Positions 2,646 to 55,621 are shown, counted from the stretch's first letter. The stretch is DNA of 64,000 nt from Candidatus Lloydbacteria bacterium RIFCSPHIGHO2_02_FULL_50_18 (GCA_001821395.1 MHLM01000012.1:84107-148106); one strand, 5' to 3'. A program made the numbers and translations. The notes: generated from the sequence alone by a model not told the origin.

Positions 2646-3116
2646 ATGCGCGGACCAGTAAAGAATCGTAATATCCGAAAGCCGGATGCAAAGTATCATT
2701 CAGTAGAAGTTTCGACACTCATCAACTACGTGATGTGGGAAGGAAAAAAGACCATCGCAACGACGGTCGTTTATGATGCACTTGAGCTCATCAAAACTCA
2801 GCTAAAAGTAGAGGACCCTATCGAAGTCTACAAGGAAGCACTGCGCAACGCCGGACCGATCATGGAAATTCGTTCACGCCGCGTCGGTGGCGCCAATTAT
2901 CAGGTTCCCCGTGAGGTCCGACCCGAGCGCCGCATCTTCCTCGCGCTGCGCTGGATCATCGATGCCGCTCGCTCAAAGAAGGGAGCCGGAATGGCCAAGA
3001 AGCTTGCCGATGAGATCATCTCCGCTTCAAAGAACGAGGGTGAAGCTATCAAGAAACGTGAGAATGTGCACAAGATGGCGGAAGCGAACAAAGCCTTCGC
3101 GCACTTCGCCTGGTAA
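2646..3116 (+). CDS. rpsG: 30S ribosomal protein S7
   Basis: Full-length S7-like sequence (KKTIATTVVYDALELIK ... ENVHKMAEANKAFAHFAW). Confidence 0.95.
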   Translation: MRGPVKNRNIRKPDAKYHSVEVSTLINYVMWEGKKTIATTVVYDALELIKTQLKVEDPIEVYKEALRNAGPIMEIRSRRVGGANYQVPREVRPERRIFLALRWIIDAARSKKGAGMAKKLADEIISASKNEGEAIKKRENVHKMAEANKAFAHFAW

Positions 3117-3274
3117 AAATTTTGTAATTCTGGCGCCCTTCGCGCTTGACTTTGAACGCGAGTCCGACGAACGTACTATGAGGAGTACGTCCGCACGGAC
3201 ATCGCATTCTTGCCGCGCGCGAATTGCATCCAGAATAACAAAATTTTTCGTATCGGCTGCAAAATGCAGCAAAT

Positions 3275-3306
3275 AAAATTCCCTCGAAAGGGGAATTTTA
3301 ATTTTA
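3275..3306 (+). terminator. hairpin plus T-rich tract after rpsG
   Basis: aaattccc-tcgaaa-gggaattt followed by ttttaatttt. Confidence 0.4.
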
Positions 3307-4012: not shown

Positions 4013-4052
4013 ATTGCAATTTGTGATTCTTAGCCATATTTTCCCGCTTTTT

Positions 4053-4073
4053 TGTCAAGGTTAAACCTTGACA
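4053..4073. promoter_or_regulatory. 21-bp palindrome TGTCAAGGTT-a-AACCTTGACA (candidate operator; contains TTGACA)
   Basis: Perfect 10-1-10 inverted repeat. The same motif recurs at 24929-24951. Confidence 0.4.
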
Positions 4074-8937: not shown

Positions 8938-9049
8938 CTCTTGATGTGTAACACACTCTGCCGTCACGGGAGACGAACTCTTGCGGGGAAATCTAAGGAC
9001 AACGTCAGGTGATGATATGGTTGTGCTTCGATAGTTTATTGTTCAGTAA

Positions 9050-9146
9050 AAGGTATTAAACCCCAGGGCAAGCCCTGGGCTCGCGATGGGCTCGCAAAGC
9101 CTCGCGCGAGTCTAGGGCTGTGCCGCAGGGTATTAAACCTTTTTTA
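9050..9146. other. GC-rich structured element flanked by 11-bp direct repeats GGTATTAAACC
   Basis: ccagggcaagccctgg hairpin and ctcgcgcgag palindrome lie between two GGTATTAAACC copies (9051-9061 and 9131-9141). Confidence 0.3.
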
Positions 9147-9189
9147 GCTCTCCTCGGCACCACGGAGAGTACTTCATTTTTTTATGTTC

Positions 9190-9237
9190 AGAATATTATC
9201 TTAACCTATGCTATAGCATAGGTTAAGATAATATTCT
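9190..9237. repeat. 48-bp perfect palindrome
   Basis: agaatattatcttaacctatgcta|tagcataggttaagataatattct is an exact inverted repeat with no spacer. It is flanked by direct repeats CACCACG(G)AGAGTACTTC at 9159-9179 and 9267-9287. Confidence 0.9.
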
Positions 9238-9388
9238 TGATGTAGATATACATGTGTACACTTTTTTAATCGCACCACGAGAGTACTTCCATTCTTCTAA
9301 GGTGGAGTACCACCAAGAAGAATTGGTCGCTCGATGAAATCGCTCTACATCGGCAATAAAAAAACGAACCCGAGGGTTCGTTTTGTCT

Positions 9389-12829: not shown

Positions 12830-14020
12830 ATGGCAGATTTTGATCGTTCGAAACCGCATGTGAACGTCGGTACCATTGGTCACGTTGACCACGGAAAAAC
12901 CACACTCACCGCTGCGATATTACACGTGCTGCACATGGGTGGATTCGAAGTGAAGATGAAGGGAGTCAACGAGATCGACTCTGCTCCTGAGGAGCGCGAG
13001 CGCGGTATCACCATCGCCCTTTCGCACAATGAGTACTCGACTGCAACTCGCCACTACGCACATATCGATGCGCCGGGCCATGCAGACTATATTAAGAACA
13101 TGATCACCGGTGCCGCTCAGATGGACGGTGCGATCATCGTGGTTGCGGCAACCGACGGCGTTATGCCTCAGACCCGCGAGCATGTCCTTCTTGCAAAGCA
13201 GGTTGGTGTGCCAAAGATCATCGTCTTCTTGAATAAAGTAGACATGGTTGATGACCAGGACTTGGTTGAGCTCGTTGAGGAAGAGGTTCGTGAATTGCTC
13301 ACCAAGCAGGGATTTGACGGTGCAAACTGCCCCGTTATCCGTGGTTCAGCATTGAAGGCTCTTGAGTCAAAGACCATTGATGATCCTTGGGCTGTGAAGA
13401 TCCTTGATCTTGCAAAGGCACTCGATGAGTACATCCCGGTTCCCGTTCGTGAACTCGACAAGCCATTCCTTATGCCCGTTGAAGACGTCTTTTCTATCGA
13501 AGGACGTGGCACGGTCGTTACCGGCCGTATCGAGCGCGGTGTTTGTAAGGTTGGGCAGGAGGTCGAGATCGTTGGTCTCGCAAAGACCGCAAAGTCGACC
13601 ATCACCGGTATCGAAATGTTCAACAAGTCCCTCTCAGAAGGACAGGCTGGAGACAACGCCGGCATCCTTATTCGCGGCATCAAGAAAGAAGATGTTACCC
13701 GCGGACAGGTTTTGGCCGCAACCGGTACTGTTACCCCACACACTGACTTTGAGTCAGAAGTCTATATCCTTTCCAAGGAGGAGGGTGGACGACACACACC
13801 GTTCTTCTCAGGCTATAAGCCACAATTCTATATCCGTACTACTGACGTGACCGGAGAGGTGACGCTCGCAGAGGGTGTCGAAATGGTCATGCCGGGAGAC
13901 ACGGTGACCTTCAAGGTGAAGCTCATCGCGCCTGTCGCGCTTGAGGCACAAATGCACTTTGCTATCCGCGAGGGTGGCAGGACCGTCGGTGCTGGTGTTA
14001 TTACCAAGATCGTTGCATAA
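12830..14020 (+). CDS. tuf: elongation factor Tu
   Basis: [38 protein letters not shown] and NKVDMVDD motifs. Confidence 0.95.
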
Positions 14021-14058: not shown

Positions 14059-14421
14059 ATGACTACAGGAACGGAACACACAAAGAAAGCCGCAAGTGCA
14101 AAGACGAAAGAGGTAGTCTCGAAGCTGCGCATCCGCGTACGCGCATATGAGTACAAGATCCTCGACGCATCGGTGCGTCAGATCATGGATACGGCATTGC
14201 GCTATGATGCAAAGCTTGTCGGGCCGATCCCTCTTCCGACTCAGATCACGAAGTACACGGTCAATCGTTCAGCGTTCATCTATAAGGATGCTCGTGAGCA
14301 GTTCGAGATGCGCGTCCACAAGCGCTTGATCGACATCATGAACCCGACACCAAAGGTGATCGAGGCGCTGACTAACCTTACACTTCCTTCAGGCGTCAAT
14401 ATCGACGTGAAGATGATGTAA
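14059..14421 (+). CDS. rpsJ: 30S ribosomal protein S10 (with N-terminal extension)
   Basis: IRVRAYEYKILDASVRQIMDTA...GPIPLPT match the S10 core. Confidence 0.9.
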   Translation: MTTGTEHTKKAASAKTKEVVSKLRIRVRAYEYKILDASVRQIMDTALRYDAKLVGPIPLPTQITKYTVNRSAFIYKDAREQFEMRVHKRLIDIMNPTPKVIEALTNLTLPSGVNIDVKMM

Positions 14422-14424
14422 TTT

Positions 14425-14523
14425 GAGCGCGAGACTTTGTTATCTTCGCTATAAACCCCGCTCACCGTATATGAATACGGCTCGGGTGGTTCGCAGCTCG
14501 ATGCCTCGTCTCGCATCTCAAAT
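14425..14523 (+). repeat. conserved structured intergenic element, copy A (after rpsJ)
   Basis: About 75% identical to 17334-17424 over about 100 nt (AACCCCGCTC...CTCGGG...GCCTCG...GCATC). The internal hairpin shows compensatory substitutions. Confidence 0.45.
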
Positions 14524-14680
14524 TTCAACATCTTCTTCAGGGTGCTGAACATTTTCTCTGCAAATTTGATCGAATGTCTTACCGTTTTCCGGAAGGAAAG
14601 CGGGGGCTTCGGTTATTACGGAGCAAAGTACTATTCTTTCTTTCGTTTATTCCCATGACATTCCTACTTAAATTACGGAC

Positions 14681-15304
14681 ATGAAATTCCTATTAGCAAC
14701 AAAACAAGAGATGACGCAATACTTCTCGGAAGACGGGAAGTGTATCGCTGCGACGCTTCTTTCCGCGGGCCCAATCACGGTGACCGAGGTGCGTACGAAA
14801 GAGCGCGACGGCTACGAAGCCGTTCAGTTCGGTTTTGGGACGCAGCTTCCAAAACGCGTCAACAAGCCACAGCTCGGCGCCCTCAAGGAGCTCGGTGTAT
14901 TCCGCTTCATGCGTGAATTCCGCCCTAAAACGGGTGGCACTGAGTCATTGAAAGCAGGCGACAAGATCACCGTTGAAGCATTTACTCCCGGAGACGACAT
15001 CGAGGTTTCGGGTATCTCAAAGGGTAAAGGTTTCCAGGGTGTCGTGAAGCGCCACGGTTTCCATGGCGGACCTCGTTCACACGGTCAGAAGCATTCTGAG
15101 CGTGAGCCGGGATCCATCGGTGCGACCGGACCTCAGCGCGTGGTACCGGGTACCCGCATGGCAGGCCGTATGGGCTCGGATCGTGTGACCATCAAGGGTC
15201 TCAAGGTTCTTGCCATTGATCCGACAAACAATCTTCTTCTCGTGTCGGGAGCGATCCCGGGTCGTCGCGGGACATTGATCGAAATTAAGGCAGCTCTTTC
15301 ATAG
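14681..15304 (+). CDS. rplC: 50S ribosomal protein L3
   Basis: Full-length L3-like sequence (KGKGFQGVVKRHGFHGGPRSHGQ). Confidence 0.93.
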   Translation: MKFLLATKQEMTQYFSEDGKCIAATLLSAGPITVTEVRTKERDGYEAVQFGFGTQLPKRVNKPQLGALKELGVFRFMREFRPKTGGTESLKAGDKITVEAFTPGDDIEVSGISKGKGFQGVVKRHGFHGGPRSHGQKHSEREPGSIGATGPQRVVPGTRMAGRMGSDRVTIKGLKVLAIDPTNNLLLVSGAIPGRRGTLIEIKAALS

Positions 15305-15308
15305 GCTT

Positions 15309-16022
15309 ATGACAACAGAAACAACGACAAAGAAAGTTATTGCAAAGAAGGCCATTGATCTCGATGCAACTGTCTACACAATGGACGGAAAGAAGTCGGG
15401 AAACATCAAGCTTCCTGAAACAGTATTCGCAGAAAAATGGAACGCAGACCTCGTACATCAGGTCGTTATCGGTATGCAGGCAAATGCCCGTCAGCCGATT
15501 GCGCACACGAAGGATCGTTCCGAAGTTCGCGGTGGAGGCAAGAAGCCATGGGCCCAGAAGGGTACCGGTCGTGCCCGTCACGGTTCGTCTCGCTCACCGA
15601 TCTGGCGCCACGGTGGTGTCACTCATGGTCCGCGTAATGACCGCGATTTTTCACAGAAGATCAACAAGAAGATGCGCGTAAAGGCATTGTTCGTCGTACT
15701 CTCAAAGAAATTTGCAGACGGACAGCTCCTCTTCATGCATGATCTTTCAATGAAAGAGCCAAAGACGAAAGACGCTCGCGCAATGCTTACGACGTGGGGC
15801 ACTATCGACGGTTTTACACCGCTTGCAACGCGCCGAAAGAACGCACTCTATGTGGTGCTCTCAAAGGCGGATGCATCGGTAAAGAAATCATTCCAGAACA
15901 TGGGCAATGTATTAGTCGGAACAATGGGAACCGTGAATCCGGTCGACCTTCTCTCGTACCGCTATGTCCTCTTTGCAAATCCCGAAGAGTGCATGAAGAT
16001 AATGGAGGCTAAACTGAAATAA
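15309..16022 (+). CDS. rplD: 50S ribosomal protein L4
   Basis: GGGKKPWAQKGTGRARHGS matches the L4 signature. Confidence 0.93.
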   Translation: MTTETTTKKVIAKKAIDLDATVYTMDGKKSGNIKLPETVFAEKWNADLVHQVVIGMQANARQPIAHTKDRSEVRGGGKKPWAQKGTGRARHGSSRSPIWRHGGVTHGPRNDRDFSQKINKKMRVKALFVVLSKKFADGQLLFMHDLSMKEPKTKDARAMLTTWGTIDGFTPLATRRKNALYVVLSKADASVKKSFQNMGNVLVGTMGTVNPVDLLSYRYVLFANPEECMKIMEAKLK

Positions 16023-16023
16023 T

Positions 16024-16470
16024 ATGGCAACACTCTTCAATAAAAAGTCTCCCGTCAAAAAGACGGTAGCAACAACCGATGTTGCAAAGGCGAAAGCCGC
16101 AAAAGTGGAGAAGGCAGACAAGAAGGACGAGGTCGCAGCACTCAAGGTCAAGGAGGCCGGAAGTGTGCGCGCAAAGAAGGGGGGACTCGAGCTCAACATG
16201 ATACTCGTTCGTCCGCATATCACCGAGAAAGCAACCGATCTATCCGAGCACAACGTCTACGCATTTGAGATCGCACGTATGGCGAACAAGGCGCAGGTCC
16301 GTCAGGCGATCGAGAAGTTCTACAAAGTGAAACCCGTCAAGATCGCGATCATCATGGGTATCGCAAAGTACATGAAGAATCCTCGTACCGGTCGAATGCA
16401 GACAAAAAAGATTGCAATTAAAAAGGCGCTCGTCTACTTGAAAAAAGGAGACAAGATTGAGTTTGTATAA
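16024..16470 (+). CDS. rplW: 50S ribosomal protein L23 (K/A-rich N-terminal extension)
   Basis: L23 core ILVRPHITEKAT...YAFEIARMANKAQVRQAIEKFY. Confidence 0.9.
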   Translation: MATLFNKKSPVKKTVATTDVAKAKAAKVEKADKKDEVAALKVKEAGSVRAKKGGLELNMILVRPHITEKATDLSEHNVYAFEIARMANKAQVRQAIEKFYKVKPVKIAIIMGIAKYMKNPRTGRMQTKKIAIKKALVYLKKGDKIEFV

Positions 16471-16481
16471 ATCTTATCAAC

Positions 16482-17327
16482 ATGAAAACATTCAAACCAT
16501 TAACGCCTAGTCTGCGTAACACCGTCCTCACTCCCTATAAGGAGCTCCTCTCCGGCGATTCGAAAGCAATCCCGAAGAGTCTTACGAAAGGAAAGCGAAA
16601 GACCGGTGGCCGCAATAACCAGGGTCGCATCACCATGCGGCACATTGGCGGAGGCAACAAGAACCTGAAGCGCGATGTCGACTTCAAATACAAGAAGCGT
16701 GACGTCTTGGGTCGCGTCGAAGCGGTCCAGTACGATCCCTTGCGCACCGCATTCATCGCCCTCGTTGTCTACAAGGACGGAGAGCGCGTGTATGTCGTCG
16801 CACCGAAGGGGATGAAGAAGGGAGACACGATGATCACGAGTGAGAAGGCCGCCCCTACGGTAGGGAACCGACTTCCGCTCAAGAAGATCGCCGTCGGTAC
16901 CTTCGTGTACAACGTTGAGGTCCAGCCCGATGGAGGAGCAAAGCTTGCTCGCTCTGCCGGAAACTTCATCGAAGTCATCGCCAACGATATGGGCTACGCA
17001 TTCTTGAAGATGCCGTCATCCGAGGTCCGCAAGGTCCCCGAGAATTGTTGGGCATCGATCGGAGGAGCTTCGAACGATCAGCACAAGCTCCGCAAGGAGG
17101 GAAAGGCCGGTCGTAACCGCTGGAAGGGTATCCGACCACACGTGCGCGGTTCAGCCATGAACGCCGTCGACCATCCTCATGGAGGTGGAGAAGGCCGCAT
17201 GGGTCGCGGTATGCGACGCCAGAAGTCACGCACCGGTAAGTTCATCGGCAAGGGACAGAAGACCAGATCGCCGAAGAAGTATTCGAACGTGTTCATTGTC
17301 TCTCGCCGAAAGGTGGGCAAGAAGTAA
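16482..17327 (+). CDS. rplB: 50S ribosomal protein L2
   Basis: GGGNKNLKR...RSAGN...HPHGGGEGR are L2 motifs. Confidence 0.95.
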   Translation: MKTFKPLTPSLRNTVLTPYKELLSGDSKAIPKSLTKGKRKTGGRNNQGRITMRHIGGGNKNLKRDVDFKYKKRDVLGRVEAVQYDPLRTAFIALVVYKDGERVYVVAPKGMKKGDTMITSEKAAPTVGNRLPLKKIAVGTFVYNVEVQPDGGAKLARSAGNFIEVIANDMGYAFLKMPSSEVRKVPENCWASIGGASNDQHKLRKEGKAGRNRWKGIRPHVRGSAMNAVDHPHGGGEGRMGRGMRRQKSRTGKFIGKGQKTRSPKKYSNVFIVSRRKVGKK

Positions 17328-17333
17328 AAATTT

Positions 17334-17424
17334 TCGCGCATTGCTTTGTTGTCATCGTCGCGAACCCCGCTCGTCATATACGAATATGCCTCGGGAGGTA
17401 TCGCAACTCGACGCCTCGCACTGC
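17334..17424 (+). repeat. conserved structured intergenic element, copy B (after rplB)
   Basis: See copy A. It sits directly after the rplB stop. Confidence 0.45.
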
Positions 17425-17462
17425 ATCGAAAATATTTACTTCTTTCTAAGATTGAAGGAAAA

Positions 17463-17492
17463 CAAAACCGCTTACTAAGCGGTTTTGTTGTA
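17463..17492 (+). terminator. rho-independent terminator
   Basis: aaccgctta-ct-aagcggtt plus TTTGTTG. Confidence 0.6.
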
Positions 17493-17567
17493 TACAAGCA
17501 CTTATGTGTCAAAAGTTTTTATACATAAGAAAATTGACATTCTTATGTATGAGGATATAATACTTCA

Positions 17568-18654
17568 ATGAGTAAAAAACCAGCTATTGTCGAACCCCTC
17601 AAATTAGATGGCTTAGGGCTAGACTACAACAGGTTTGCAGAAGAACTTTCAACCGCCGAATATGCGCTCGGGTTAATTGAGGGTATGCAAAAAAACTACT
17701 AAACCCAAATCTTTTGATTAGTCCCCTAACCGCCAAGGAAGCAGCTGCGAGTTCTAAGATAGAAGGAACACAAAGTGATGTGTCCGATGTATTTATGTTT
17801 GAGGCGGGTGGGGAAACTAAACATGCAGATACACGTGAGGTTGTGAATTACCGTCGAGCAATGCGTTTGGCCATGACGGAGATTAAAAAAGGAAGAGAGG
17901 TAAGCAGTCATCTGGTAGAGACCCTTCACGGAGTATTATTGAAAGATGTCCGTCATATTGGCAATCTTGGAAAATATAGAGAAGGACAAGTTTGGATTGC
18001 CGAACGATCTGGTGATCCAATTGAGAAAGCGATATACGTCCCACCCGAGGCAATACACGTGCGCGGGTTGGCTCAGAATTTGATTGAATACATAAACGTG
18101 GGGAAGGAGAATGCATTGATTAAGGCAGGCGTTGCACACTATCAGTTTGAGGCAACTCATCCATTTGATGATGGGAATGGGAGAATTGGGAGACTCCTTA
18201 TTCCAATTGTGTTACACAGACATCAGAGATTGTCATCACCAATTCTTTATCTTAGCGGCTACTTTGATGATCATCGAGATGAATATATCGCGAGGCTCCA
18301 TGCATTGGATGATGGTGCTGATATGGAAGATTGGTTAAAATTTTTTTACATTCGGTTAGCCAGCAGCTCGGTCAAACACAAAAAATAATTGAAGGAATTT
18401 ATGAACTCTATGACCAGCTTAGACTTGAAAATAGGGGGATAAAATCACCATTCGTTATTCCCCTCATTGATATGATGTTTGAGATGCCAATTTTTACGTT
18501 GGCCATGGTGCAAGAATCAACTAAATGCTCGAGCTATATAACTGCATCGACACTAATTAAGAGAATGATTGATGCGGGTCATGTTGAAAATGTAGGAAAG
18601 GTTGGAAGGGAAAAGCTTTATGAATTCCGCTCGCTTGTAAAAGTATTAAAATAA
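17568..18654 (+). pseudogene. Fic/Doc-family protein interrupted by two -1 frameshifts at homopolymers
   Basis: HPFDDGNGRIGRLL is the Fic motif. The N-terminus (frame of 17568) stops at 17700. The middle is ORF 17714..18388 and the C-terminus is ORF 18331..18654. Frame switches occur at A7 (17689-17695) and T7 (18341-18347). Confidence 0.7.
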
Positions 18655-21090: not shown

Positions 21091-21918
21091 CAGAGCTCCC
21101 CTATTTCTTTCCTCCCTTCTTCGGCTTCTTTGCCTCCTTCTTGATGTTGTTGTCTCCGCGTCCCATGTTGTATGCGTCTATTGATAATATTGCACAATTA
21201 TATCATGACACAGCAAAACACCACCGCACATTTGTGCGGTGGTGTTTTGCTTGTTGTTATTTCACTACGACCTTCTTTGGCTTTTTCTTATTTTTCTGCT
21301 GTGCATTGTTTCCTTTTGCCATGACGTATTGCTTATACTGCTAATGAACGAACGTATCTTCAGTGTAGCAGATTTTCGTCATGACATGAAAATGCCCGGT
21401 TGTACCCATGTTGATAGTGGTCATACGGACCGACCCATGCTTATTTGCAAAAACAGGGGATAACTTTCACTACGGAAGGCGCTTTGAGGCTATAATGGTG
21501 ACAACATTTTCGCACATTACGCGCTGGGTGCTTTTGGAGTAAAAAGCGAGCAGGACGTAGTGTGAGAAGATCCACAAAATGGATCCTTATGCTATGTTCC
21601 AGCGAATGGACATATCGTTGCGGAGAAACAAAAACTTCGTTAACGGTAGAGGTTAGTCGTATATCTTTCTTATCAACATCGTGGATACGCGTTCGTTGCC
21701 TACAGCAAGGAATGTGAAAAGTGATGAAGAGAAGTACTCTGGAGCCAATTTTTATGAATCCGTTGTCGAGTGCTAAAAAGCAAAAGTAACGATCGCCAAT
21801 CGTCCTCCCGCATAAAAAAGTATCTGTAGTACTTTTTATGCCAGAGTGCATGCTCATCGAAAGATATCAACGAATTGTCATAGCGCCGCGTTCAGGCAAG
21901 AACGCGGCGTTATGTATT

Positions 21919-22041
21919 GAGGATTGAGAACATAGCAAATTTCTTTGTTGAAACATGAACATGCAAGCAAGCCGTACTCCGAGTACGGCTTGCTTGCATG
22001 TTCATGTTTCGTCTCGAACTTTGCATATGTTCTCAATCCTA
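21919..22041. repeat. about 123-bp nested imperfect palindrome with a near-perfect 59-bp core at 21951-22009
   Basis: aaacatgaacatgcaagcaagccgtactc-c-gagtacggcttgcttgcatgttcatgttt is flanked by the outer inverted repeat aggattgagaacata / tatgttctcaatcct. Confidence 0.7.
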
Positions 22042-22125
22042 AAGGATGAATGTCCAATCGCTACTGTTGCGATTTTTTTATTATCTGGCAGTCTGAGTAC
22101 AGAATGGTCTTCGAGGGAGGCAGGA

Positions 22126-24864: not shown

Positions 24865-24928
24865 ATGCTATCAGGTGAAGCAATATGGGCAAGCTTTTCT
24901 ATGTTTAGCAACGTATTTTCGACTTTTT

Positions 24929-24951
24929 TTGTCAAGGTTTAACCTTGACAA
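24929..24951. promoter_or_regulatory. second copy of the TGTCAAGGTT-N-AACCTTGACA palindrome, upstream of queA
   Basis: ttgtcaaggtt-t-aaccttgacaa lies 65 bp upstream of the queA start on its template side. Confidence 0.4.
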
Positions 24952-25313: not shown

Positions 25314-25476
25314 TGTTGCTCCTTCGGTTTGGTTTTTGAGTCTGACATGACATTAGCACGAAAAATATTTATGTCAATAATTTGATATTCCTATATTTTA
25401 TAACATATTTTGACTTAATTCGAACGCCACACCTAGGAAGTGAGGGAAATAGGTCTTTTGGGAGACTTCACGGGCT

Positions 25477-25585
25477 TGAAATACGCACCTGGGAGCGAGG
25501 TATTGCTTTTTGAGGGGCTACGGACCGCGGCGGCGGGAGTTTGAGGAAAAAGTCAGCAGACTTTTATCCGTGCCCTCAAAAAGCA
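25477..25585 (+). repeat. hairpin-forming repeat element, copy 1 (family TTGCTTTTTGAGRG...CYCTCAAAAAGCAA)
   Basis: It is the reverse complement of 29479-29636 at both ends, each about 45 nt at over 90% identity. It contains an internal long-range inverted repeat. Confidence 0.6.
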
Positions 25586-25750
25586 ATGCCGAGCGTATAC
25601 ATTGACTTCTTTGGGCTGTTTAAGTAGTATCTAGCACAAGGTATTTCAAATAGTTTCACTCTACGCCGTGGGAGGATCAGGGGCGTTGGGAAATCTATAT
25701 CGAAAAATCGCCAAATCGCCCAAAAGGCTTAGAAAAACTTTTATAAACAT

Positions 25751-28865: not shown

Positions 28866-29477
28866 ATGAACGTCCCAACAATAAAAGAAAAGATAAAGTC
28901 CGCATATCCAAAGCTGAAAGAGAAGCATGGATATAAGAACGTCATGCAGGCACCTAAGGTGGAGAAGGTCATCATTTCCGTGGGCACCGGTAAGATGTCC
29001 CGCAATGACAAGAAGAAGAATGAGTTCGTCGCGAGCCGGCTTGGTATGATCACCGGACAGAAGGCGTCTGCACGAAAGGCAAAACAATCGATCGCTTCGT
29101 TCAAGCTTCGTGAGGGTGATGTCATCGGACAGATGGTCACGATGCGCGGGAGCAAAATGATGGGTTTCCTCGACAAGCTTGTGAACGTGGCTATCCCGCG
29201 TACGCGCGACTTCCGAGGATTCCGTGCCGCCTCGATCGATGCAATGGGGAATTTCACCCTTGGTATCAAGGAGCACACGATCTTCCCTGAGACTGCAGAT
29301 GAAGACCTGAAAGACGTCTTCAGCCTCGCACTCACTGTCGTTCTTTCAACGAGGAACAAGGAGGAGTCCATTGATTTCTTGGAGCACCTTGGTTTCCCGT
29401 TCCGCGAAACTGCGAACGAGGGAAAGAAAAAGAAAGAGAAGAAGGTTGACGCCCCAAGTAAGAAGTGGAAGAAGTAA
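28866..29477 (+). CDS. rplE: 50S ribosomal protein L5 (K-rich C-terminal tail)
   Basis: L5 core (NVMQAPKVEKVIISVGTGK ... FRGFRAASIDAMGNFTLGIKEHTIFPE). Confidence 0.95.
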   Translation: MNVPTIKEKIKSAYPKLKEKHGYKNVMQAPKVEKVIISVGTGKMSRNDKKKNEFVASRLGMITGQKASARKAKQSIASFKLREGDVIGQMVTMRGSKMMGFLDKLVNVAIPRTRDFRGFRAASIDAMGNFTLGIKEHTIFPETADEDLKDVFSLALTVVLSTRNKEESIDFLEHLGFPFRETANEGKKKKEKKVDAPSKKWKK

Positions 29478-29478
29478 T

Positions 29479-29636
29479 TACCGCTCAGCATTGCTTTTTG
29501 AGAGCACGGATAAAAGTCTGCTGACTTTTTCCACCGCAAGGGTACTTCCAATTTCATACTCCCTATGGTCGTTGAAATTTAGGTCGCTCACACCTCGCAC
29601 TGCCCGGCTCCGTAGCCTCTCAAAAAGCAATACTTC
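29479..29636 (-). repeat. hairpin-forming repeat element, copy 2 (inverted relative to copy 1; about 70-nt extra internal segment)
   Basis: It starts immediately after the rplE stop. Both ends are reverse-complementary to 25477-25585. An internal long-range stem GCATTGCTTTTTGAGAG / CTCTCAAAAAGCAATAC is present. Confidence 0.6.
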
Positions 29637-29719
29637 GCTCCCAGGTTCGTTTTTCGAGCGGGGATCCGAAAAGACTTATTGTCTTCGCCCAAGAGGATCG
29701 GAGTTCGCGTTTGAAATAC

Positions 29720-29833: not shown

Positions 29834-30202
29834 ATGCAGATCCGCTTTCGGGTTCGCGAACTCGCTTTGGCAATTCGGGAATTTCTCGTCGGTGTCTTTG
29901 TCTTCTTCCGGCGGTCAGTGAAAAGAAGGGATGAAGTACGATATTGCTTCATGTGCCAAGAGTACGGCCATCCGCTTACTAAAGTATCGTTCATGATCCG
30001 CACAGAAGCGCGGAGGGGGGCAAAGAAGGAGGCGCCATTCTCGGTCATGGAACTCCACGTGTGCAGTATGCATCATCCTGACAAGGACGTCGTCGGGGCA
30101 GACCTGTCCGAGGAAACACGATCATTTCTTCGAAACAATGATGCTGCCGCAGCGTGTGTCTACTATTACCATGATCCCGATCATGTTTTCCGCCTCGGAT
30201 AA
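29834..30202 (+). CDS. hypothetical Cys/His-rich protein (122 aa)
   Basis: GAGGT RBS. Its 3' end plus terminator are duplicated at 31107-31179. Confidence 0.35.
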   Translation: MQIRFRVRELALAIREFLVGVFVFFRRSVKRRDEVRYCFMCQEYGHPLTKVSFMIRTEARRGAKKEAPFSVMELHVCSMHHPDKDVVGADLSEETRSFLRNNDAAAACVYYYHDPDHVFRLG

Positions 30203-30216
30203 GAGGTGGTTTTTTT
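30143..30216 (+). repeat. 73-bp direct repeat, copy 1 (includes terminator hairpin ccgcctcggataagaggtgg plus T7)
   Basis: About 93% identical to 31107-31179. Confidence 0.7.
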
Positions 30217-30267
30217 ATACTCCGTACGTTATCCAAAGGTAATTGGACAAAGTAGCAAAAATGCAAT

Positions 30268-31089
30268 ATGGTCAGTACGGAAAAGCTAGCCCCGGGCTCC
30301 ATCGTGGGAATATTCTTTGAGAAGGAACAGTCCATGCAAACAGATAAGACAGACTCGGCTTCTGCAACGCCGGAACAACTCGCGATGCTTACTGGCGAGT
30401 TCGCTCTGGCTCTGGCTAAGGCAAAGCCATCCGCCGCTCTCATGCAGCATCTGCTCCGAAGCAGGGTGGCAACACGGAAGATGATCATCGCGGCCCTATC
30501 GACGCAGGGAAGAATCAGTCACACGATTGATCCTCGCCTCGTGCAGTGTCAAAAGCTATGGGAGAAACTCGGAGTGGTGCTCGACTGCATGGACAATCTT
30601 GTCATGCCGGAAATCCCATCCGGTTGGCGCGGTATCGCCATCATCCCACCACTCACAAATGAAGCACTCCTCGCTCTTTGCAAAAAGCACTTTCCGATAT
30701 GGTCGAAACGCGATGGCCTCGACAATATCTTGAGAGAACAAAATCGACCACGATGCACCTACGTCGTCGTCCATCGTGGTGGTATGGAGCCGGATAAAGA
30801 GCATCGTAATAAGAGTCATGATGATGCGGTCAATGAAGGTTTGTATTTTTTGACGCTGAAGGAGCGTATCTGCATCGAGCTTCTTCATTTCATAAAAACA
30901 GGCAAGCATTTTGATGTTAAGGGGACCATGACAGTCACATCCTCGCTGACGATGGGTGGCGATGCGTTTAATGTGTATTGGAGTTCGCATATTCAGACGT
31001 TCATTGTGGATGGTTGCCGTACGGTGACTTCGTACTCGACGAATGGGCTTCGTCAGGCCGTTTTCTTTGGATTGAAGCCTTACCGTTGA
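30268..31089 (+). CDS. hypothetical protein, paralog of 22912..23760
   Basis: Flanked by the 73-bp direct repeats. The start may be the ATG at 30334 (GAGAAGGAA RBS). Confidence 0.5.
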   Translation: MVSTEKLAPGSIVGIFFEKEQSMQTDKTDSASATPEQLAMLTGEFALALAKAKPSAALMQHLLRSRVATRKMIIAALSTQGRISHTIDPRLVQCQKLWEKLGVVLDCMDNLVMPEIPSGWRGIAIIPPLTNEALLALCKKHFPIWSKRDGLDNILREQNRPRCTYVVVHRGGMEPDKEHRNKSHDDAVNEGLYFLTLKERICIELLHFIKTGKHFDVKGTMTVTSSLTMGGDAFNVYWSSHIQTFIVDGCRTVTSYSTNGLRQAVFFGLKPYR

Positions 31090-31106: not shown

Positions 31107-31179
31107 GTGCCGCAGCGTGTGTCTACTATTATCATGATCCCGATCATGTTTTCCGCCTCGGTTAAGAGGCGGTTTTTTT
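31107..31179 (+). repeat. 73-bp direct repeat, copy 2
   Basis: See copy 1. It ends in ccgcctcggttaagaggcgg plus T7. Confidence 0.7.
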
Positions 31180-31211
31180 ATAAGACAAATTTTTGACTTT
31201 CCTGAAAGTTA

Positions 31212-32368: not shown

Positions 32369-35113
32369 ATGTCCTCAACAAAAAGGTTTTTTTCACTGTG
32401 CATGTTTGGCATATTCCTCCTTCCCTCACTCGCCGCTGCTGACACCACCATCTCCTCCAACATCACCACGAATCAAACCTGGACCACGGCAAGCAGTACA
32501 TACATCGTCACCACCGGTATTGCGATCAACGCAGGTGTCACCCTCACCATCAACCCCGGAGTGATCGTGAAGTTCAGCGGGATCATGTCCGGCATCACCG
32601 TGAATGGGACGTTAAACGCCCAAGGAACCGCACTTGCACCGATATACTTCACCTCATACAAAGATGACACCGTGAATGGTGATACGAATGGCGATGCGAC
32701 CTCAACAACCCCAGCCGGGGGCGACTGGTTTTGGTTCTCCATTCCCGCGGGCGGAGCAGCAACGATCGACAACGCGATCATCCGCTATGGCGGCAGTTTC
32801 AATACTGCGCTGTTCTATAATAACGGAGGTAACCTCACCCTTGCGAACTCCGAAGTCGCATCCAGTTCCAAGTATGGCATCTGGACATATTCCGGCATAT
32901 CAACTATCGCTTCTTCCACCATCGATCACAACGCGAGCTACGGTATCTATCATACGGGAGGCACCACTACCGTTGCCACGAGTACGATCCGCGATCACAG
33001 CACCTATGGCTTCTCCACCCAGAGCGGAACTGGAAATCTCATCCTCACCAACAATATCTTTTCCGGTAATCTTCAAGGTGGAGGACTGGTGAACTTGGCC
33101 GACAGTGCAAACGTGACCCATACGAACAACAGTGCAACGGGGCAAGGAAAGGGTGGCATGGTCATCTATGGTTCTCCCAATAAGGCACAGACATGGGGAG
33201 CAGACCCGCTCTTCCCGTATATTATCTCAACGACAACAGGGTCGGTCACCGTGAGTACGTATGCCATCACCCTCAATCCCGGTGCGATCATCAAATTTGA
33301 AGGAACAACCGCAGGGTTTGCGGGCAATTCAGGCACCTTCACTGCCGCGGGAACTACACAATCTCCCGTATATTTCACCTCCATCAAGGACGACACCGTG
33401 GGTGGCGACACCAATGGGAATGGCACGGGTACCACTCCATCTGCGGGGGATTGGGATGGTCTCATGTCCCAGAACTATAGCAATCTCACGTTGAACAATA
33501 CCGTGATCCGCTACGGTGGCTCAAAGATGCTCTATGCCAACGGTGTGAACAGCGTCATCAACCTATTCAACTCAGAAGTTGCCAGCAGTTCAAGTGCGGG
33601 AATCTATAGTGATGCAGGAACAGTGAATGCCACCGGTACGAGCATTCACGACAATCGCTACGGCTATTATCACGGCAATGTCCAAGGCAATAGCATTGCC
33701 CACATTGCCAATGCCGGCAACACCATCTATCGCAATAGCACCTATGGTATTTATAACAATGGAACCGCCCTCGTGAATGCCGAGCAGGTATACTGGCCGG
33801 CGACAACAACGGGAGCGACGATGAATGGGCCGTATAGTACAAGCACCAACCCAGGGGGGCATGGAGATGCTGTGCTCCCCACATACATCGACTTTGATCC
33901 TTGGCTCTCTACCGTGTCAGGAAATATCGCAACGAATACCACGTGGACTGCTTCGAGTACATATGTCATTGATGGAACGCTCACGGTGAATGCGGGGACG
34001 ACACTCACGATTCCTGCAGCTACGGTGGTGAAGTTTGCCAATGCAACCTCAAAGATCAGCGTCTCGGGGAGCTTGGTTGCAGATTCTGCAGCGTCTTCCT
34101 CACGAATATATTTCACGTCAATCAAGGATGATGCGGTGGGAGGGGATACCAATGGAGATGGGGGTGCGACTTCACCTGCTGCGGGAGATTGGGATGGGAT
34201 CAAAGTGAATGCGGGAGGCGTTGCAACACTGAACTTCATTTCTGCTCGCTATGGAGGAAGTGGTGGGCCCATGCTTTGGAACTATGCAGGAACGTTGGAT
34301 CTTAATAATTCAGAAATTGCGAGCAGTAGTAATACGGGAATCTTCCATTCCTCGGGTGCCACGCAATTAATAGTTCGAGCTTGTGATATTCACAACAATA
34401 ATTATGGCATATTTGTTGACGACAGCTCGCTTGTGACAATCGGCAGCAACAATATTCATGGCAATGTTGTGGGAGTAAATGATAATACTTTTTTTGGGAT
34501 TGATATTAGATATAACTATTGGGGTGATGCAAGTGGCCCATATAATTCTGTCTATCACCCGACTGGGACCGGTGATACCATCGTTGAGAATGCGTTTACG
34601 CTTGTTTCTCCATGGTTAGACAGGGTACATTATTTGTATTTCTTAAACCACAATTTGGTTACTTCGATTACCAGTGGAGTATTGGATTGGAATTGGTTCA
34701 ACGGCACATCTACTTATGCGACGGCTTGGTATGCAGGAGTTAACACATGGAACACATATGGAAATTCGGTTGGAGGAGTTACTTTTGCAACAAGTACCAC
34801 GGCAACATCCTCAGCTGATTTACTCGTTTTGGACATGGCTAGCTCATCTAGTGATTTATTCTATGCCATCTACGACCCCTTTGTTACTCCTACGGAAATT
34901 AAATTTAACCCTTATTATATGAACACTGCAACTGCTAATATAAGGCAAATGACCACAACTCATGAACTTGGTCATGCCCTAGGGCTTTGGCACAGTTATA
35001 TAAACAACATCATGATTGCATCCCCAGCTTCAACTACTGGTCAGGTTTCACTGGGCACTCAAGATATGTTGGATTACGATTATTGTTGGGTGAGTCATAA
35101 TTGTGGGATATAA
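32369..35113 (+). CDS. secreted beta-helix repeat protein with C-terminal metzincin-type zinc protease motif (914 aa)
   Basis: Signal peptide MSSTKRFFSLCMFGIFLLPSLAAA. Three modules of about 250 aa each end in (I/A)RYGGS and carry repeated NSEVASSS, IYFTS(I/Y)KDD, GDTNG and GDWDG motifs. C-terminal THELGHALGLWHS matches HExxHxxGxxH. Confidence 0.6.
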   Translation: MSSTKRFFSLCMFGIFLLPSLAAADTTISSNITTNQTWTTASSTYIVTTGIAINAGVTLTINPGVIVKFSGIMSGITVNGTLNAQGTALAPIYFTSYKDDTVNGDTNGDATSTTPAGGDWFWFSIPAGGAATIDNAIIRYGGSFNTALFYNNGGNLTLANSEVASSSKYGIWTYSGISTIASSTIDHNASYGIYHTGGTTTVATSTIRDHSTYGFSTQSGTGNLILTNNIFSGNLQGGGLVNLADSANVTHTNNSATGQGKGGMVIYGSPNKAQTWGADPLFPYIISTTTGSVTVSTYAITLNPGAIIKFEGTTAGFAGNSGTFTAAGTTQSPVYFTSIKDDTVGGDTNGNGTGTTPSAGDWDGLMSQNYSNLTLNNTVIRYGGSKMLYANGVNSVINLFNSEVASSSSAGIYSDAGTVNATGTSIHDNRYGYYHGNVQGNSIAHIANAGNTIYRNSTYGIYNNGTALVNAEQVYWPATTTGATMNGPYSTSTNPGGHGDAVLPTYIDFDPWLSTVSGNIATNTTWTASSTYVIDGTLTVNAGTTLTIPAATVVKFANATSKISVSGSLVADSAASSSRIYFTSIKDDAVGGDTNGDGGATSPAAGDWDGIKVNAGGVATLNFISARYGGSGGPMLWNYAGTLDLNNSEIASSSNTGIFHSSGATQLIVRACDIHNNNYGIFVDDSSLVTIGSNNIHGNVVGVNDNTFFGIDIRYNYWGDASGPYNSVYHPTGTGDTIVENAFTLVSPWLDRVHYLYFLNHNLVTSITSGVLDWNWFNGTSTYATAWYAGVNTWNTYGNSVGGVTFATSTTATSSADLLVLDMASSSSDLFYAIYDPFVTPTEIKFNPYYMNTATANIRQMTTTHELGHALGLWHSYINNIMIASPASTTGQVSLGTQDMLDYDYCWVSHNCGI

Positions 35114-35124
35114 CATTGAAAACC

Positions 35125-35853: not shown

Positions 35854-36092
35854 GATGCTTCTGCGGGGGTATACTTATTTGTGAACACAACGGCTCATGA
35901 ACAAAAAAATACTAAAATACACACTTGTCATCTTTGGGATATTCCTGCTCGGAGGCGTCGCGTTGTCGATCCATTTGTTCATCCAAAGTAAATTTGGTGT
36001 TTACGCTCCTCTAGATCGCGGATTTCCGGTAAGGACATTCCATCCAACGGGTATTAGTATTGATCAACCCAGCATTTGAATGGATACCTATC

Positions 36093-36276
36093 ATAATTGT
36101 GGGATATAACATTGAAAACTATGAACAAAGACATAAAAGATATAATGATTCTTCTTATTGCACTTCTACTCTCCATCGTCGTCATTGCTGGAATATATTA
36201 CGGAATAAAAAGTACTCAAGGAACTGTAGTTTCAACATATTCTCATCAGGGAACGCCTGAAAATCCGGCAATGTAG
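36093..36276 (+). pseudogene. truncated duplicate of the 35096-35290 junction (gene fragment encoding MNKDIKDIMILLIALLLSIVVIAGIYY...)
   Basis: About 80% nucleotide identity over about 185 bp. It includes the last 20 nt of the upstream gene (HNCGI stop) and the first 51 codons of the downstream gene, then a stop. Confidence 0.4.
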
Positions 36277-40036: not shown

Positions 40037-41332
40037 TTGGGCAAGAGCCCCACATTAACCATGAACAATTTTTTCTACAAACTACGCTTGATGATCTCTG
40101 ATCCGTCACTACGAGGGCGACTCCTCTTTGTTGTCGGAGCACTGGCCGTCTTCCGTATCGCCGCTTCGATCCCAATTCCGGGAGTCGATCACGCTGCACT
40201 GCTCCAGTTTTTCCAGAACAATCAGTTCCTGGGACTCTTGAATGTGTTTTCGGGATCGGGACTCTCAACACTCTCCATTGTCATGCTTGGTGTCGGACCG
40301 TATATCACGGGTTCCATCATCATGCAGCTCCTTACGATGATGTCGCCAAAACTGAAGGCGATGTATCACGAGGAAGGGGAGATCGGTCGCAAGAAATTCA
40401 CTCAGTATTCACGCTTACTTACGGTGCCACTCGCAATGCTTCAGGGGTATGGATTGCTTGTATTGCTGGCGCGCCAGGGGGTGCTCGGAGATCTGAATCC
40501 ATTCCAGTTGTTCGTAAACGTACTCATTGTTACGGCAGGTTCCCTTTTCCTGATGTGGATCGGTGAGCTAATCTCTGAGTTCGGTATCGGCAATGGCGTC
40601 TCGATCCTCATCTTCGCAGGTATCGTCTCGCGTATTCCTACGGTTGCCTCTCAGACCTTGGTCTCCTACAACCCTCAGGATATACCGCTCTATCTTGCCT
40701 TCACCATCGCGGCAGTGGTTATCATCGCCGGGGTCATCGTCATGACCGAAGCGGAGCGACCGGTGCCGATCACGTATGCGAAGCGCGTGCGTGGCGGAAA
40801 GATGTACGGAGGAGTCTCTACTTACTTGCCGCTTCGTGTGAACCAGGCAGGTGTGATCCCGATCATTTTTGCTCTTTCGATCTTGCTTTTTCCTCAGCTT
40901 ATCGGAGGATTTCTCTCTGGGCTCGCTAATCCGACGGCGCAGATGATCGGTGAATTCATGAAGACGAACTTTTCGCAGGGATGGATCTATTCGATCTGCT
41001 ACTTTGCGCTTGTCTTCCTCTTCACGTTCTTCTATACCGCAGTGACGTTCGATCCGGAAGCGGTTGCAACCAACCTTCAAAAGTCGGGTGCGTTCATTCC
41101 GGGAGTTCGACCGGGTGCAGCGACGGCAGAGCATATTGCGAAGATCCTCACTCGTACGACATTTGCAGGAGCATTATTCCTCGCAGGGGTCGCAGTATTG
41201 CCGCTTATCATGCAGTCGTTCACGGGAAACCAATCGCTTGCGATCGGTGGTACCGCACTCTTGATCGTTGTGTCGGTTGTGCTTGATCTTATCAAGAAAA
41301 TGGACGCACAACTCTCGATGCGCGAGTATTAA
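40037..41332 (+). CDS. secY: preprotein translocase subunit SecY
   Basis: Ten TM segments. Conserved LNVFSGSGLSTLSIVMLGVGPYITGSIIMQLL and GISILIFAGIV blocks. Confidence 0.95.
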   Translation: MGKSPTLTMNNFFYKLRLMISDPSLRGRLLFVVGALAVFRIAASIPIPGVDHAALLQFFQNNQFLGLLNVFSGSGLSTLSIVMLGVGPYITGSIIMQLLTMMSPKLKAMYHEEGEIGRKKFTQYSRLLTVPLAMLQGYGLLVLLARQGVLGDLNPFQLFVNVLIVTAGSLFLMWIGELISEFGIGNGVSILIFAGIVSRIPTVASQTLVSYNPQDIPLYLAFTIAAVVIIAGVIVMTEAERPVPITYAKRVRGGKMYGGVSTYLPLRVNQAGVIPIIFALSILLFPQLIGGFLSGLANPTAQMIGEFMKTNFSQGWIYSICYFALVFLFTFFYTAVTFDPEAVATNLQKSGAFIPGVRPGAATAEHIAKILTRTTFAGALFLAGVAVLPLIMQSFTGNQSLAIGGTALLIVVSVVLDLIKKMDAQLSMREY

Positions 41333-41579
41333 AAAACGAGCAATTTGGGCGCACTACAGGTTTGTCATCGGGTATGACCCCACGTCAACGTACGAGAGTA
41401 CGTCTCGTGAGGATCATCCCTCGACGCACCCGTATTGCATCCCAAATTGTTCGTTTTTGTTTTGTCTTAAAATCATGAACATTTGGTTGTCGCGAATATC
41501 GTTGTAGCCGGCAAGTAGATCAAAACACAAAAGACCCGAAAGGGTTTTTTGTTTTATCGTTTTTTGATACACTCTCTTT

Positions 41580-54772: not shown

Positions 54773-55381
54773 ATGGAGAAAAAGCATCCCAAATTCGAGC
54801 GCACATTCGTCATCCTTAAGCCGGATGCAATACAGCGCACGCTTATCGGAGAAGTCATTAAGCGTTTTGAGCGTACGGGGTTGAAGACGGTCGGTATGAA
54901 AATGATCGTCGCAACACGTGAACAGACCGCAGCGCATTATGGAAAGGATGATGCGTGGTGCGAAAAAGTAGGTGGACGCATCATCGGGGATATAGAGCGA
55001 GAGGGAGGTAAGGCTGAGAAGTCGGCTTTGGAGTATGGCCGTGACATATTGAACGGTCTGTTGGATTTCCTGACTTCTTCACCGATCGTGATCATGGCTC
55101 TTGAAGGCAATCAGGCGGTCGGCGTCGTCAAAAAGATCGTTGGTGGGACGGAACCCCTTTCCTCGGATGTCGGTACTATCCGCGGTGATTTCACGAGTGA
55201 TTCATACGAGATCGCTGGTGTGGACGGACGAGCGGTGCGAAACATCGTGCATTGTTCCGATCAGGTGTCCGAAGCGGAACGTGAGCTCAAGGTCTGGTTC
55301 AAAGAAGGCGAATTGATCAAGTACACACATGTCGGGGAGCGAATGCTGTACGATGTGAACATGGACGGCATCCTCGAGTAA
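54773..55381 (+). CDS. ndk: nucleoside diphosphate kinase (with internal insertion)
   Basis: FVILKPDAIQRTLIGEVIKRFERTGLK and the active-site NIVHCSD (NxxHxSD). Confidence 0.9.
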   Translation: MEKKHPKFERTFVILKPDAIQRTLIGEVIKRFERTGLKTVGMKMIVATREQTAAHYGKDDAWCEKVGGRIIGDIEREGGKAEKSALEYGRDILNGLLDFLTSSPIVIMALEGNQAVGVVKKIVGGTEPLSSDVGTIRGDFTSDSYEIAGVDGRAVRNIVHCSDQVSEAERELKVWFKEGELIKYTHVGERMLYDVNMDGILE

Positions 55382-55514
55382 TCGCAAATTTGGGCACATG
55401 ACCGCGTTGTGTTCGGCGTGAACTCCCGCGATGTATATGAATACACCTTGGGAGTATCACTTCTCCACGCCTTGTCCTGTATCCCCAATATGCAATTGCT
55501 CACATGAGACTTGG

Positions 55515-55543
55515 GGAAAACCTTGTAAAAACAAGGTTTTTTC
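55515..55543 (+). terminator. rho-independent terminator after ndk
   Basis: accttg-taaaaa-caaggt plus TTTTTT. Confidence 0.5.
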
Positions 55544-55621
55544 TGTGGATAAACACGGGAAAAGGCTGTGGAGAAGTCTGAGCGAGATAGGTGTATAAGC
55601 TGTGGATTGCCTGTGGGTAAA
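55544..55621 (+). promoter_or_regulatory. cluster of four same-orientation DnaA-box-like 9-mers
   Basis: TGTGGATAA (perfect), TGTGGAGAA, TGTGGATTG and TGTGGGTAA within 78 bp. Confidence 0.35.

Follow-up and report, generated by a model that had tools for sequence, protein, structure and literature searches.

What kind of element lies directly behind the ribosomal protein genes rpsJ and rplB of Candidatus Lloydbacteria bacterium RIFCSPHIGHO2_02_FULL_50_18 was the question raised by a 64-kb stretch of its genome (GCA_001821395.1, MHLM01000012.1:84107-148106; 64,000 nucleotides, analyzed as a whole and referred to here as the window). An earlier reading based on the DNA letters alone (the sequence-only reading) had pointed to two similar structured segments right after these genes and had listed a ribosomal protein (r-protein) autoregulatory or attenuator RNA, a small RNA family, and an insertion-target element or one resembling miniature inverted-repeat transposable elements (MITEs) as candidate functions. 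Our analysis revealed that both segments belong to a palindromic repeat family under structural constraint, whose dispersed copies are embedded in stop codons and which is not specific to r-protein genes. The family is new, and its stop-codon embedding is unusual. In the window, tuf (12830-14020) is followed by rpsJ, a 259-nt spacer, rplC, rplD, rplW, and rplB, which is the end of the S10 operon in this clade; 3' of rplB, a terminator and then foreign genes are located. Identical S10 genes were found on groundwater contigs from the Rifle aquifer.

Census of the Repeat Family

The segments 3' of rpsJ (copy A) and rplB (copy B) were found at the places described for them and shared 72% identity over 71 nt without gaps and 74-75% identity in alignment. 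A repeat search led to a third copy (copy C) 3' of the gene at 54773-55381, identified as ndk through Pfam, which was also used to assign the names of the other upstream genes. A first covariance model built from these three copies and run unfiltered over the window, and a second model built from ten copies, detected the same six copies, all of them on the plus strand (Table 1). This number is a lower bound, and the window therefore holds at least six copies, not only the two originally recognized; the search for further copies that the sequence-only reading had proposed also yielded members in a metagenome-assembled genome (MAG) of Candidatus Lloydbacteria and in other groundwater contigs. 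Covariance-model E-values for the rpsJ and rplB segments were approximately 1e-28, which places their similarity well outside what chance would give. Under the ten-copy model, scores amounted to 95-115 bits in the sense orientation and 14-26 bits in the antisense orientation, and the element is considered asymmetric because the sense scores lie far above the antisense scores.

Copies occur here at a density of about one per 10-12 kb, paralogous copies are only 55-75% identical, and no conserved open reading frame (ORF) is present within the element. The earlier view of a structured, covarying repeat, as opposed to a decaying duplicate or a coding remnant, was correct. The core of copy A begins inside the rpsJ stop codon, and that of copy B 1 nt past the rplB stop. 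Copy E is divergent: it is a near-perfect palindrome with perfect 30-nt arms, 55 Watson-Crick pairs, and no minus-wobble mismatches, it lies in a promoter-side spacer with no adjoining stop codon, and its only mismatches are the conserved asymmetric loops of the family. No copy was found in the ten kb further upstream of the window (L029), and looking up a ThiF-like protein in order to extend the window to the right returned no record. Rfam 15 gave no match at the gathering score over the whole window, and a permissive search (E<=10) of copies A and D and their surroundings brought up no relevant family.

Table 1. Copies of the repeat family, terminator-type sites, and the two r-protein genes first associated with the repeat in the window (bits, covariance-model scores).
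Feature	Position	Core	Strand	Context	Score, energy, or basis
Copy A (full hairpin)	14409..14535	14420-14524	+	3' of rpsJ (stop ends 14421)	117 and 111 bits; -58.3 kcal/mol with flanks
Copy B (full hairpin)	17319..17444	17329-17433	+	3' of rplB (stop 17327)	119 and 115 bits
Copy C (full hairpin)	55376..55501	55387-55489	+	3' of ndk (stop 55381)	112 and 96 bits; -46 kcal/mol, z -4.95
Copy D (full hairpin)	41332..41458	41342-41447	+	3' of secY (stop 41332)	70 and 95 bits; -66.5 kcal/mol
Copy E (full hairpin)	21917..22042	21928-22031	+	Spacer ahead of gene starting near 22126	38 and 40 bits; -82.8 kcal/mol
Copy F (full hairpin)	3113..3249	3126-3236	+	3' of rpsG/S7 (stop 3116)	30.5 and 50.7 bits; -66.4 kcal/mol
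Terminator-type hairpin and T-run after copy B	17461..17489		+	17 nt past hairpin end (17444), 28 nt past core	Fold and sequence
Terminator-type hairpin and T-run after copy C	55513..55544		+		Fold only; missed by consensus scan
Intrinsic-terminator-like site after copy D	41527..41552		+	~70 nt past hairpin end (41458), ahead of adk	
Intrinsic-terminator-like site after copy F	3274..3300		+		
rpsJ (S10)	14059..14421		+	Stop codon forms the base of copy A	Pfam Ribosomal_S10
rplB (L2)	16482..17327		+	Last codons and stop paired within copy B	

Hairpin Architecture and Covariation

Every copy forms one long imperfect hairpin of ~60 bp, composed of a conserved core of ~105 nt and a locus-specific basal stem of 8-12 bp, and the imperfect palindrome as a whole measures roughly 125-135 bp. 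From the 5' end, the core reads AATTTGGGCGCA, GTTGTC, the variable apical stems, CTCGACGCC, and TGCATCCCAAATT, with conserved sequence confined to the outer half, where these four motifs are situated. Fixed asymmetric loops also occur in the outer half (C opposite AT, and TTT opposite CTC); together with the bulge of GTTGTC opposite GACGC, they are retained in all copies across species. The inner stems are wholly different between loci yet still paired. For example, the central stems read CCGTAT/ATACGG in copy A and CATAT/ATATG in copy B, which agrees with the paired covariation reported previously. The structure proposed at that time was partly retained, since the hairpin does covary, and partly replaced: instead of a small central hairpin plus a CCCG/CGGG helix, one hairpin spans the segment and ~10 nt of flank on each side. 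The terminal inverted repeats (AATTTGGGCGCA / TGCATCCCAAATT), the folding into a long hairpin, and the small size (about 105-135 bp) are those of a MITE.

In the alignment of ten copies, which had been fitted to the covariance model, 94.3% of the cells were paired and double changes were present in 25 of the 35 pairs. None of 500 shuffles reached the observed level of pairing, and slid partners paired at 30-44%. An independent MAFFT/RNAalifold analysis of 14 copies with their flanks resulted in 36 pairs, 32 of them with double changes, the flank stem included.

Position Relative to Stop Codons and Terminators

The core starts between -2 and +12 nt from a co-oriented stop codon at nine of the 11 independent sites, eight of which lie within +10; a rough chance estimate of 6e-11, calculated for nine of 11 sites within +10, is slightly optimistic given the one site at +12. 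The genes upstream of the copies include rpsG, rpsJ, rplB, secY, ndk, and those encoding an ABC ATPase and a secreted fn3/phosphatase-like protein. When copies were folded with 30-nt flanks, the minimum-energy structures contained 8-12 extra pairs formed by locus-specific sequence, so that the base of the hairpin takes in the stop codon and, in many cases, the two or three codons before it. In copy A, the last three rpsJ codons and the TAA stop (GAAGATGATGTAA) pair with TTTCAACATCTTC (9 flank pairs), and in copy B, the last two rplB codons and the stop (AAGAAGTAAA) pair with TTTACTTCTT (10 flank pairs). Likewise, GAG-TAA-T pairs with ATTGCTC in copy C, TAAAAATTTTGT with AACAAAATTTTT in copy F, and AAAAACGAGC with GTTCGTTTTT in copy D (10 flank pairs), where the basal stem begins directly past the secY stop. 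Complementary flanks were present in 13 of 13 loci tested, and copies E and L025_B possess them though they are not at stop codons. The 14-nt flanks belonging to the same copy had a mean energy of -10.0 kcal/mol, compared with -2.6 +/- 2.1 kcal/mol for 5' and 3' flanks taken from different copies. In the relative L009, the rpsJ stop has changed from TAA to TAG, which is offset by a T to C change on the 3' arm.

The complement of the rplB end (TTTACTTCTT) is missing from relatives in which no element follows rplB. The complementarity thus arose with or after the element and not before it, and a pre-existing palindromic target is thereby ruled out. No direct target-site duplication was observed at the examined loci, the flanks being inverted complements instead. 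The AGTT...AACT ends in L009 show that the terminal AATT belongs to the stem and is no target-site duplication.

Downstream of a copy lies either the intrinsic terminator of the upstream gene or the next cistron. Four copies (B, C, D, and F) have a distinct terminator-type hairpin 17-69 nt past the hairpin end (28-80 nt past the core); the terminator after copy B had already been noted. The element itself was also considered as an intrinsic terminator and rejected, because no T-run is found directly past the long hairpin and copy A is intercistronic. Copy A and the copies between rplW and rplB, being intercistronic, must therefore be read through.

The spacer between copy A and rplC contains another conserved structure, a nested hairpin at 14566-14618 (ACCGTTTTCC-GGAA-GGAAAGCGG inside CGAA/TTCG), which is kept with compensatory changes in the MAG GFS_12411 and the relatives L027 and L028, genomes free of the repeat included. 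This hairpin is a better candidate for the rplC-operon leader than the repeat.

Distribution, Gain, and Loss among Relatives

IUPAC patterns were scanned against 185,579 species genomes, Joint Genome Institute (JGI) metagenomes, and viral contigs, and the matches were checked by covariance model. The species-genome scan gave seven matches, only three of which were true, all in the Candidatus Lloydbacteria MAG GFS_12411; pattern matches in Verrucomicrobiota, Bacteroidota, and Solirubrobacterales were not confirmed by the model and are ascribed to chance. Three of the seven JGI metagenome matches were true, one of them 3' of secY in a more distant relative. The viral contigs yielded no pattern match, and no match was obtained with blastn against phage records. 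The family is restricted to a narrow clade of Candidatus Lloydbacteria, which belong to the candidate phyla radiation (CPR)/Parcubacteria.

The MAG GFS_12411 bears orthologous copies 3' of rpsJ and rplB, as well as copies 3' of the gene for the fn3/phosphatase-like protein, 3' of the ABC ATPase gene, and between rplW and rplB. Orthologues of copy A were identified in L014 and L009, and an orthologue of copy B in L017. Similarity is higher between orthologues (A versus A_GFS, B versus B_GFS) than between paralogues, indicating that the copies are older than these species. The secY copies D and L024 have common ends and a replaced interior in which pairing is kept.

Four relatives with S10 proteins 91-92% identical (L025-L028) were fetched for comparison. 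L025 carries copies between rplW and rplB and past the rplB terminator, and after rpsJ it has a 135-nt stop-embedding hairpin below the detection of the covariance model, with a similar hairpin in L026. As in the secY copies, the position is retained here and the sequence has changed. No element follows rpsJ in L027 and L028, where the spacers measure 137-145 nt and contain a short hairpin only; compared with these, the rpsJ-rplC gap of the window, for which the sequence-only reading had given 260 nt, is indeed longer. The rplW-rplB site, filled in GFS_12411 and L025, is empty in the window and reads TAAATCTTATCAACATG, a precise absence of the element and its added flank complement. In L009 (1046-1105), which encodes an identical S10 protein, the outer stem of copy A is rewritten in both arms: the 3' arm is new, as is a perfect base of 17 nt (AAATGATGTAGTTTTGG / CCAAAACTACATCATTT), and ~40 nt of extra sequence precede a remnant of the old 3' end (GTATCTCAAATTCCAACATC). 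Element sites are gained, lost, and rebuilt between relatives.

Comparison with Known Repeat Systems

Among known systems, the element is most like the hairpin repeats of the enterobacterial repetitive intergenic consensus (ERIC)/MITE type, and a MITE-like element was likewise the closest of the options listed at the outset. Bacterial hairpin repeats of this kind (ERIC or intergenic repeat units, Correia, RUP, SMAG) have been reviewed, and the ERIC RNA hairpin affects the stability or processing of the upstream message via RNase E (PMC3184786). The features in common are a length of ~100-130 bp, a whole element forming one imperfect-palindrome hairpin, dispersal in intergenic DNA and mostly at gene 3' ends, no coding capacity, presumed co-transcription, and presence or absence varying between relatives. 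In contrast to ERIC/MITE-like repeats, no direct-repeat target duplication such as TA is found here and the flanks are inverted complements; the stem enters the stop and last codons at nearly every site, the orientation relative to the gene is uniform, identity between paralogues is only 55-75%, the element resides in a CPR bacterium whose genome is very small, and a strand asymmetry favors the antisense side. Tested as a MITE, the family thus shows dispersed copies with presence/absence differences but no direct target duplication. Through the Correia hairpin, RNase III acts on the upstream message.

A repetitive extragenic palindrome (REP) is a 20-40 nt palindrome with a GTAG or CGTC foot, and two inverted REPs constitute a REPIN (PMC3733652, PMC3116915). 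REPs, REPINs, and the REP-associated tyrosine transposases (RAYTs) were compared on the basis of PMC3116915, PMC3733652, and PMC2817692. Like our element, they are extragenic palindromes at gene ends, with a REPIN hairpin of ~100 nt and paired changes that maintain the structure, and a single-stranded-DNA stage has been proposed for them. Unlike REPs, the element has AATTT/AAATT ends, and CGTC occurs in roughly half of the copies, always at internal positions; its arms are not self-palindromic, so it is no REP doublet, and approximately one copy per 10-12 kb is found here versus hundreds of near-identical copies. A Y1_Tnp match, indicative of a RAYT, was absent both from the 36 window proteins scanned and from the Pfam lists precomputed for neighboring loci. 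In E. coli, REPs within ~15 nt of a stop codon reportedly cause terminating ribosomes to stall, and a hairpin this near the stop codon would, as with REPs, interfere with the terminating ribosome.

The attC sites of integron cassettes resemble the element in being imperfect palindromes (57-141 nt in attC) that start at or on the stop of the preceding ORF, with conserved ends, a variable centre, and conserved extrahelical bases, and in having the bottom strand as the structured strand; this is a resemblance only. The aligned ends of our copies contain no RYYYAAC / GTTRRRY core sites, neither an integrase (among the scanned window proteins) nor a cassette array was found nearby, and upstream of the copies lie core housekeeping genes whose order is conserved (rpsG, rpsJ, rplB, secY, ndk), in place of promoterless cassettes.

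Interpretation and Alternative Explanations

On balance, with slightly more confidence than doubt, we favor the reading that the family is a non-autonomous MITE/ERIC-like repeat, likely acting in cis as a co-transcribed 3' or intercistronic hairpin and not as an r-protein regulator. If the element acts at all, it most likely does so as a co-transcribed 3' hairpin. It would be transcribed within the messenger RNA (mRNA) to give a very stable 3' or intercistronic hairpin, whose base the terminating ribosome would have to melt; the upstream message could then be protected from 3' exonucleases, or the hairpin could serve as a site of double-strand processing. Copies have been gained and lost site by site, and those retained keep the hairpin via paired changes. 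CPR genomes are tiny and streamlined, and the repeat family is kept beside essential, highly expressed genes (S7, S10, L2, SecY, NDK). To our knowledge, interspersed structured repeats have hardly been described in CPR bacteria, and our literature searches on CPR repeats or stop-codon-embedded repeats returned nothing specific. An element acting as RNA would provide a compact model in which a terminating ribosome and a 3' hairpin set the fate of an mRNA in bacteria whose RNA-decay machinery is minimal. For an element acting as DNA, the bias toward the bottom strand and the inverted duplication of the flanks would suggest a mechanism of insertion or palindrome growth that has not been described so far.

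Several observations weigh against this favored reading. We infer sense transcription through the element from its position only, and a second protective hairpin is redundant where a terminator follows. The 36 window proteins scanned with Pfam, and likewise the precomputed Pfam lists for ~150 kb of related loci, included neither a transposase nor an integrase or reverse transcriptase. The strand comparison contradicts selection on a sense-strand RNA: in ten of ten copies, the antisense strand folds better than the sense strand, by 5-17 kcal/mol, with a consensus energy of -43.5 for antisense versus -29.4 for sense. When mismatches were sorted by aligning each left arm to the reverse complement of its right arm, the transition mismatches comprised 61 that are A.C in the sense strand, and hence wobble pairs in the antisense strand, versus 24 that are G.U in the sense strand; within the copy-specific inner stems, the ratio was 31 antisense-wobble to 4 sense-wobble mismatches. 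These wobble counts are inflated by orthologues, and their direction is uniform. Finally, paired changes and flank complementarity could result from template switching in DNA palindromes with no RNA function. Ordinary strand mutation bias was rejected as the source of the asymmetry, given that the local skews run the opposite way: the elements have a GC skew of -0.09, and the values are +0.05 for the window and +0.10 for third codon positions. Terminators of bidirectional appearance just downstream make an antisense RNA difficult to accommodate. The strand bias speaks against the element simply functioning as a sense RNA and allows two readings, namely a single-stranded-DNA stage or selection that weakens the mRNA-strand hairpin. 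The earlier conclusion that covariation marks a functional RNA is weakened, the covariation itself being confirmed, since template switching can make the arms of a DNA palindrome co-evolve and the wobble test favors the antisense strand. For genome scans, this is a caution that covariation in a palindromic DNA repeat is not in itself evidence of a functional RNA. No parent insertion sequence with the same ends was found in the window or the fetched loci.

The single-stranded-DNA stage is the core of an explanation that we regard as possible but unlikely: a bottom-strand hairpin would be recognized by an HUH- or tyrosine-type transposase or recombinase encoded elsewhere, or made as complementary DNA (cDNA), and the mRNA hairpin would be a by-product; in the present, stable orientation, the strand that folds would lie on the leading-strand template. 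It accounts for the wobble bias overall and in the variable stems, for the lower antisense minimum free and consensus energies, and for an element composition opposite to the local skew. Sites that are gained and lost, the replacement of the L009 3' arm and flank with the old 3' end surviving ~40 nt downstream, and asymmetric bulges that persist even in the near-perfect copy E, as for a protein recognition site, are also consistent with it. It is opposed by the absence of candidate enzymes in the scanned window proteins and related loci, of direct target duplication, of a REP-type GTAG/CGTC foot, and of attC-type AAC/GTT core sites; moreover, orthologues predate species splits and paralogues are only 55-75% identical, with no sign of recent bursts, and the tight link to stop codons is not predicted. 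A more specific version, a new structure-specific mobile or recombination hairpin of the CPR whose bottom-strand single-stranded DNA or cDNA homes just past stop codons with an inverted flank duplication of ~10 nt, and whose enzyme is not yet linked to any repeat family, has a low probability in our judgement. Just as improbable, in our estimate, is that the copies are neutral palindromes, relics of an old insertion wave whose arms were homogenized and whose flanks were copied by template switching (quasipalindrome correction), functionless as RNA and as DNA. Mutation through template switching is well established for quasipalindromes (PMC7202029). It would explain complementary flanks at every locus, the two without a stop codon included, the missing rplB-end complement in element-free relatives, which indicates that it arose with or after the element, the perfect 17-nt new base of L009 beside the displaced old 3' end, and the precise absence of the rplW-rplB element in the window. 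Yet template switching should erase mismatches, and the same asymmetric loops are kept in all copies across species, which argues against pure template switching; neither the 31:4 strand bias of transitions, nor the uniform 8-12 bp length of the flank stem, nor the stop-codon adjacency is predicted.

The two RNA functions proposed at the outset fared worse than the co-transcribed hairpin that we favor. An r-protein autoregulatory or attenuator RNA of the S10 operon is suggested by the position of copy A between rpsJ and rplC and by four of the five stop-adjacent window copies following str/S10/spc genes (rpsG, rpsJ, rplB, secY). We nevertheless consider it extremely improbable, given that copies also lie 3' of ndk, the ABC ATPase gene, and the gene for the fn3/phosphatase-like protein; that close relatives sharing the operon, with S10 91-92% identical, have no element behind rpsJ and rplB, so that it is not conserved at the same operon position; that copies lie 3' of genes and mostly before terminators, not as leaders; that no Rfam ribosomal leader family matches; and that the conserved hairpin nearer rplC (~14566-14618) is a better leader candidate. 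Very little probability is also left for independent genes of a trans-acting small RNA family, which would fit a stable conserved structure in several copies. No promoter-like site was found ahead of the four copies scanned (A, B, D, and F), and the element starts 0-12 nt from the upstream stop, inside the hairpin base, leaving no room for a promoter. In contrast to what a seed region would require, it is the interior that varies, and the basal stem consists of locus-specific sequence, coding sequence included.

Genomic Neighborhood and Other Features of the Window

Past the terminator of copy B, a perfect TTGACA-16-TATAAT promoter (sigma-70-type) of an inserted Fic module is found; just after rplB, it drives a 44-aa ORF and a Fic-domain gene (17534-18654). 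In a sister genome (L017, 1222-2032), a different two-gene module, which may be a toxin-antitoxin pair, occupies the same post-rplB place, and this site looks like a swap hot spot. The str/S10/spc ribosomal cluster as a whole (2145-41332) is broken by unrelated genes into five blocks, namely rpsL-rpsG, fusA, tuf-rpsJ...rplB, rpsS...rplE, and ...secY-adk-map. The break 3' of rplB is common to all four fetched relatives (L025-L028), and the genes in the gap differ in each.

Approximately 1 kb downstream of copy C, genes encode a beta-CASP/RMMBL ribonuclease (RNase J/CPSF-like; 56411-57778) and a UDG-family glycosylase (57781-58461). Their closeness to copy C is probably a coincidence; the ribonuclease is a candidate processor of such hairpin RNAs. 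Two very large adjoining genes (46068-54622) encode proteins of 1065 and 1743 aa, the former with a weak match to the TraG/TraD coupling protein and the latter with no Pfam match.

Other repeats and palindromes were also identified. A minus-strand covariance-model match at 9042-9144 (19-27 bits) belongs to another long hairpin and was left out of the family count; the unrelated 120-nt hairpin at 9030-9150 has an energy of -59.9 kcal/mol (z -6.7), and the same spacer contains a perfect AT-rich palindrome of ~50 nt (9187-9240). A second long-hairpin family (GCATTGCTTTTTGAGRG ... CYCTCAAAAAGCAATRC) has two copies in opposite orientation (25468-25600 and 29476-29662), one upstream of rpsS and the other 4 nt past the rplE stop, so that the rpsS-rplE block is enclosed between them; as in the main family, the copy next to the stop has its more stable fold on the minus strand (-72.9 versus -57.6 kcal/mol). 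Direct repeats comprise one of 75 nt (30145-30219 / 31108-31182; 96% identical, terminator included) that flanks the gene at 30268-31089, and one of 122 nt (35095-35216 / 36091-36212; 89% identity). Finally, the palindromic box TTGTCAAGGTTWAACCTTGACA occurs twice (4037-4073 / 24914-24950) and looks like an operator.

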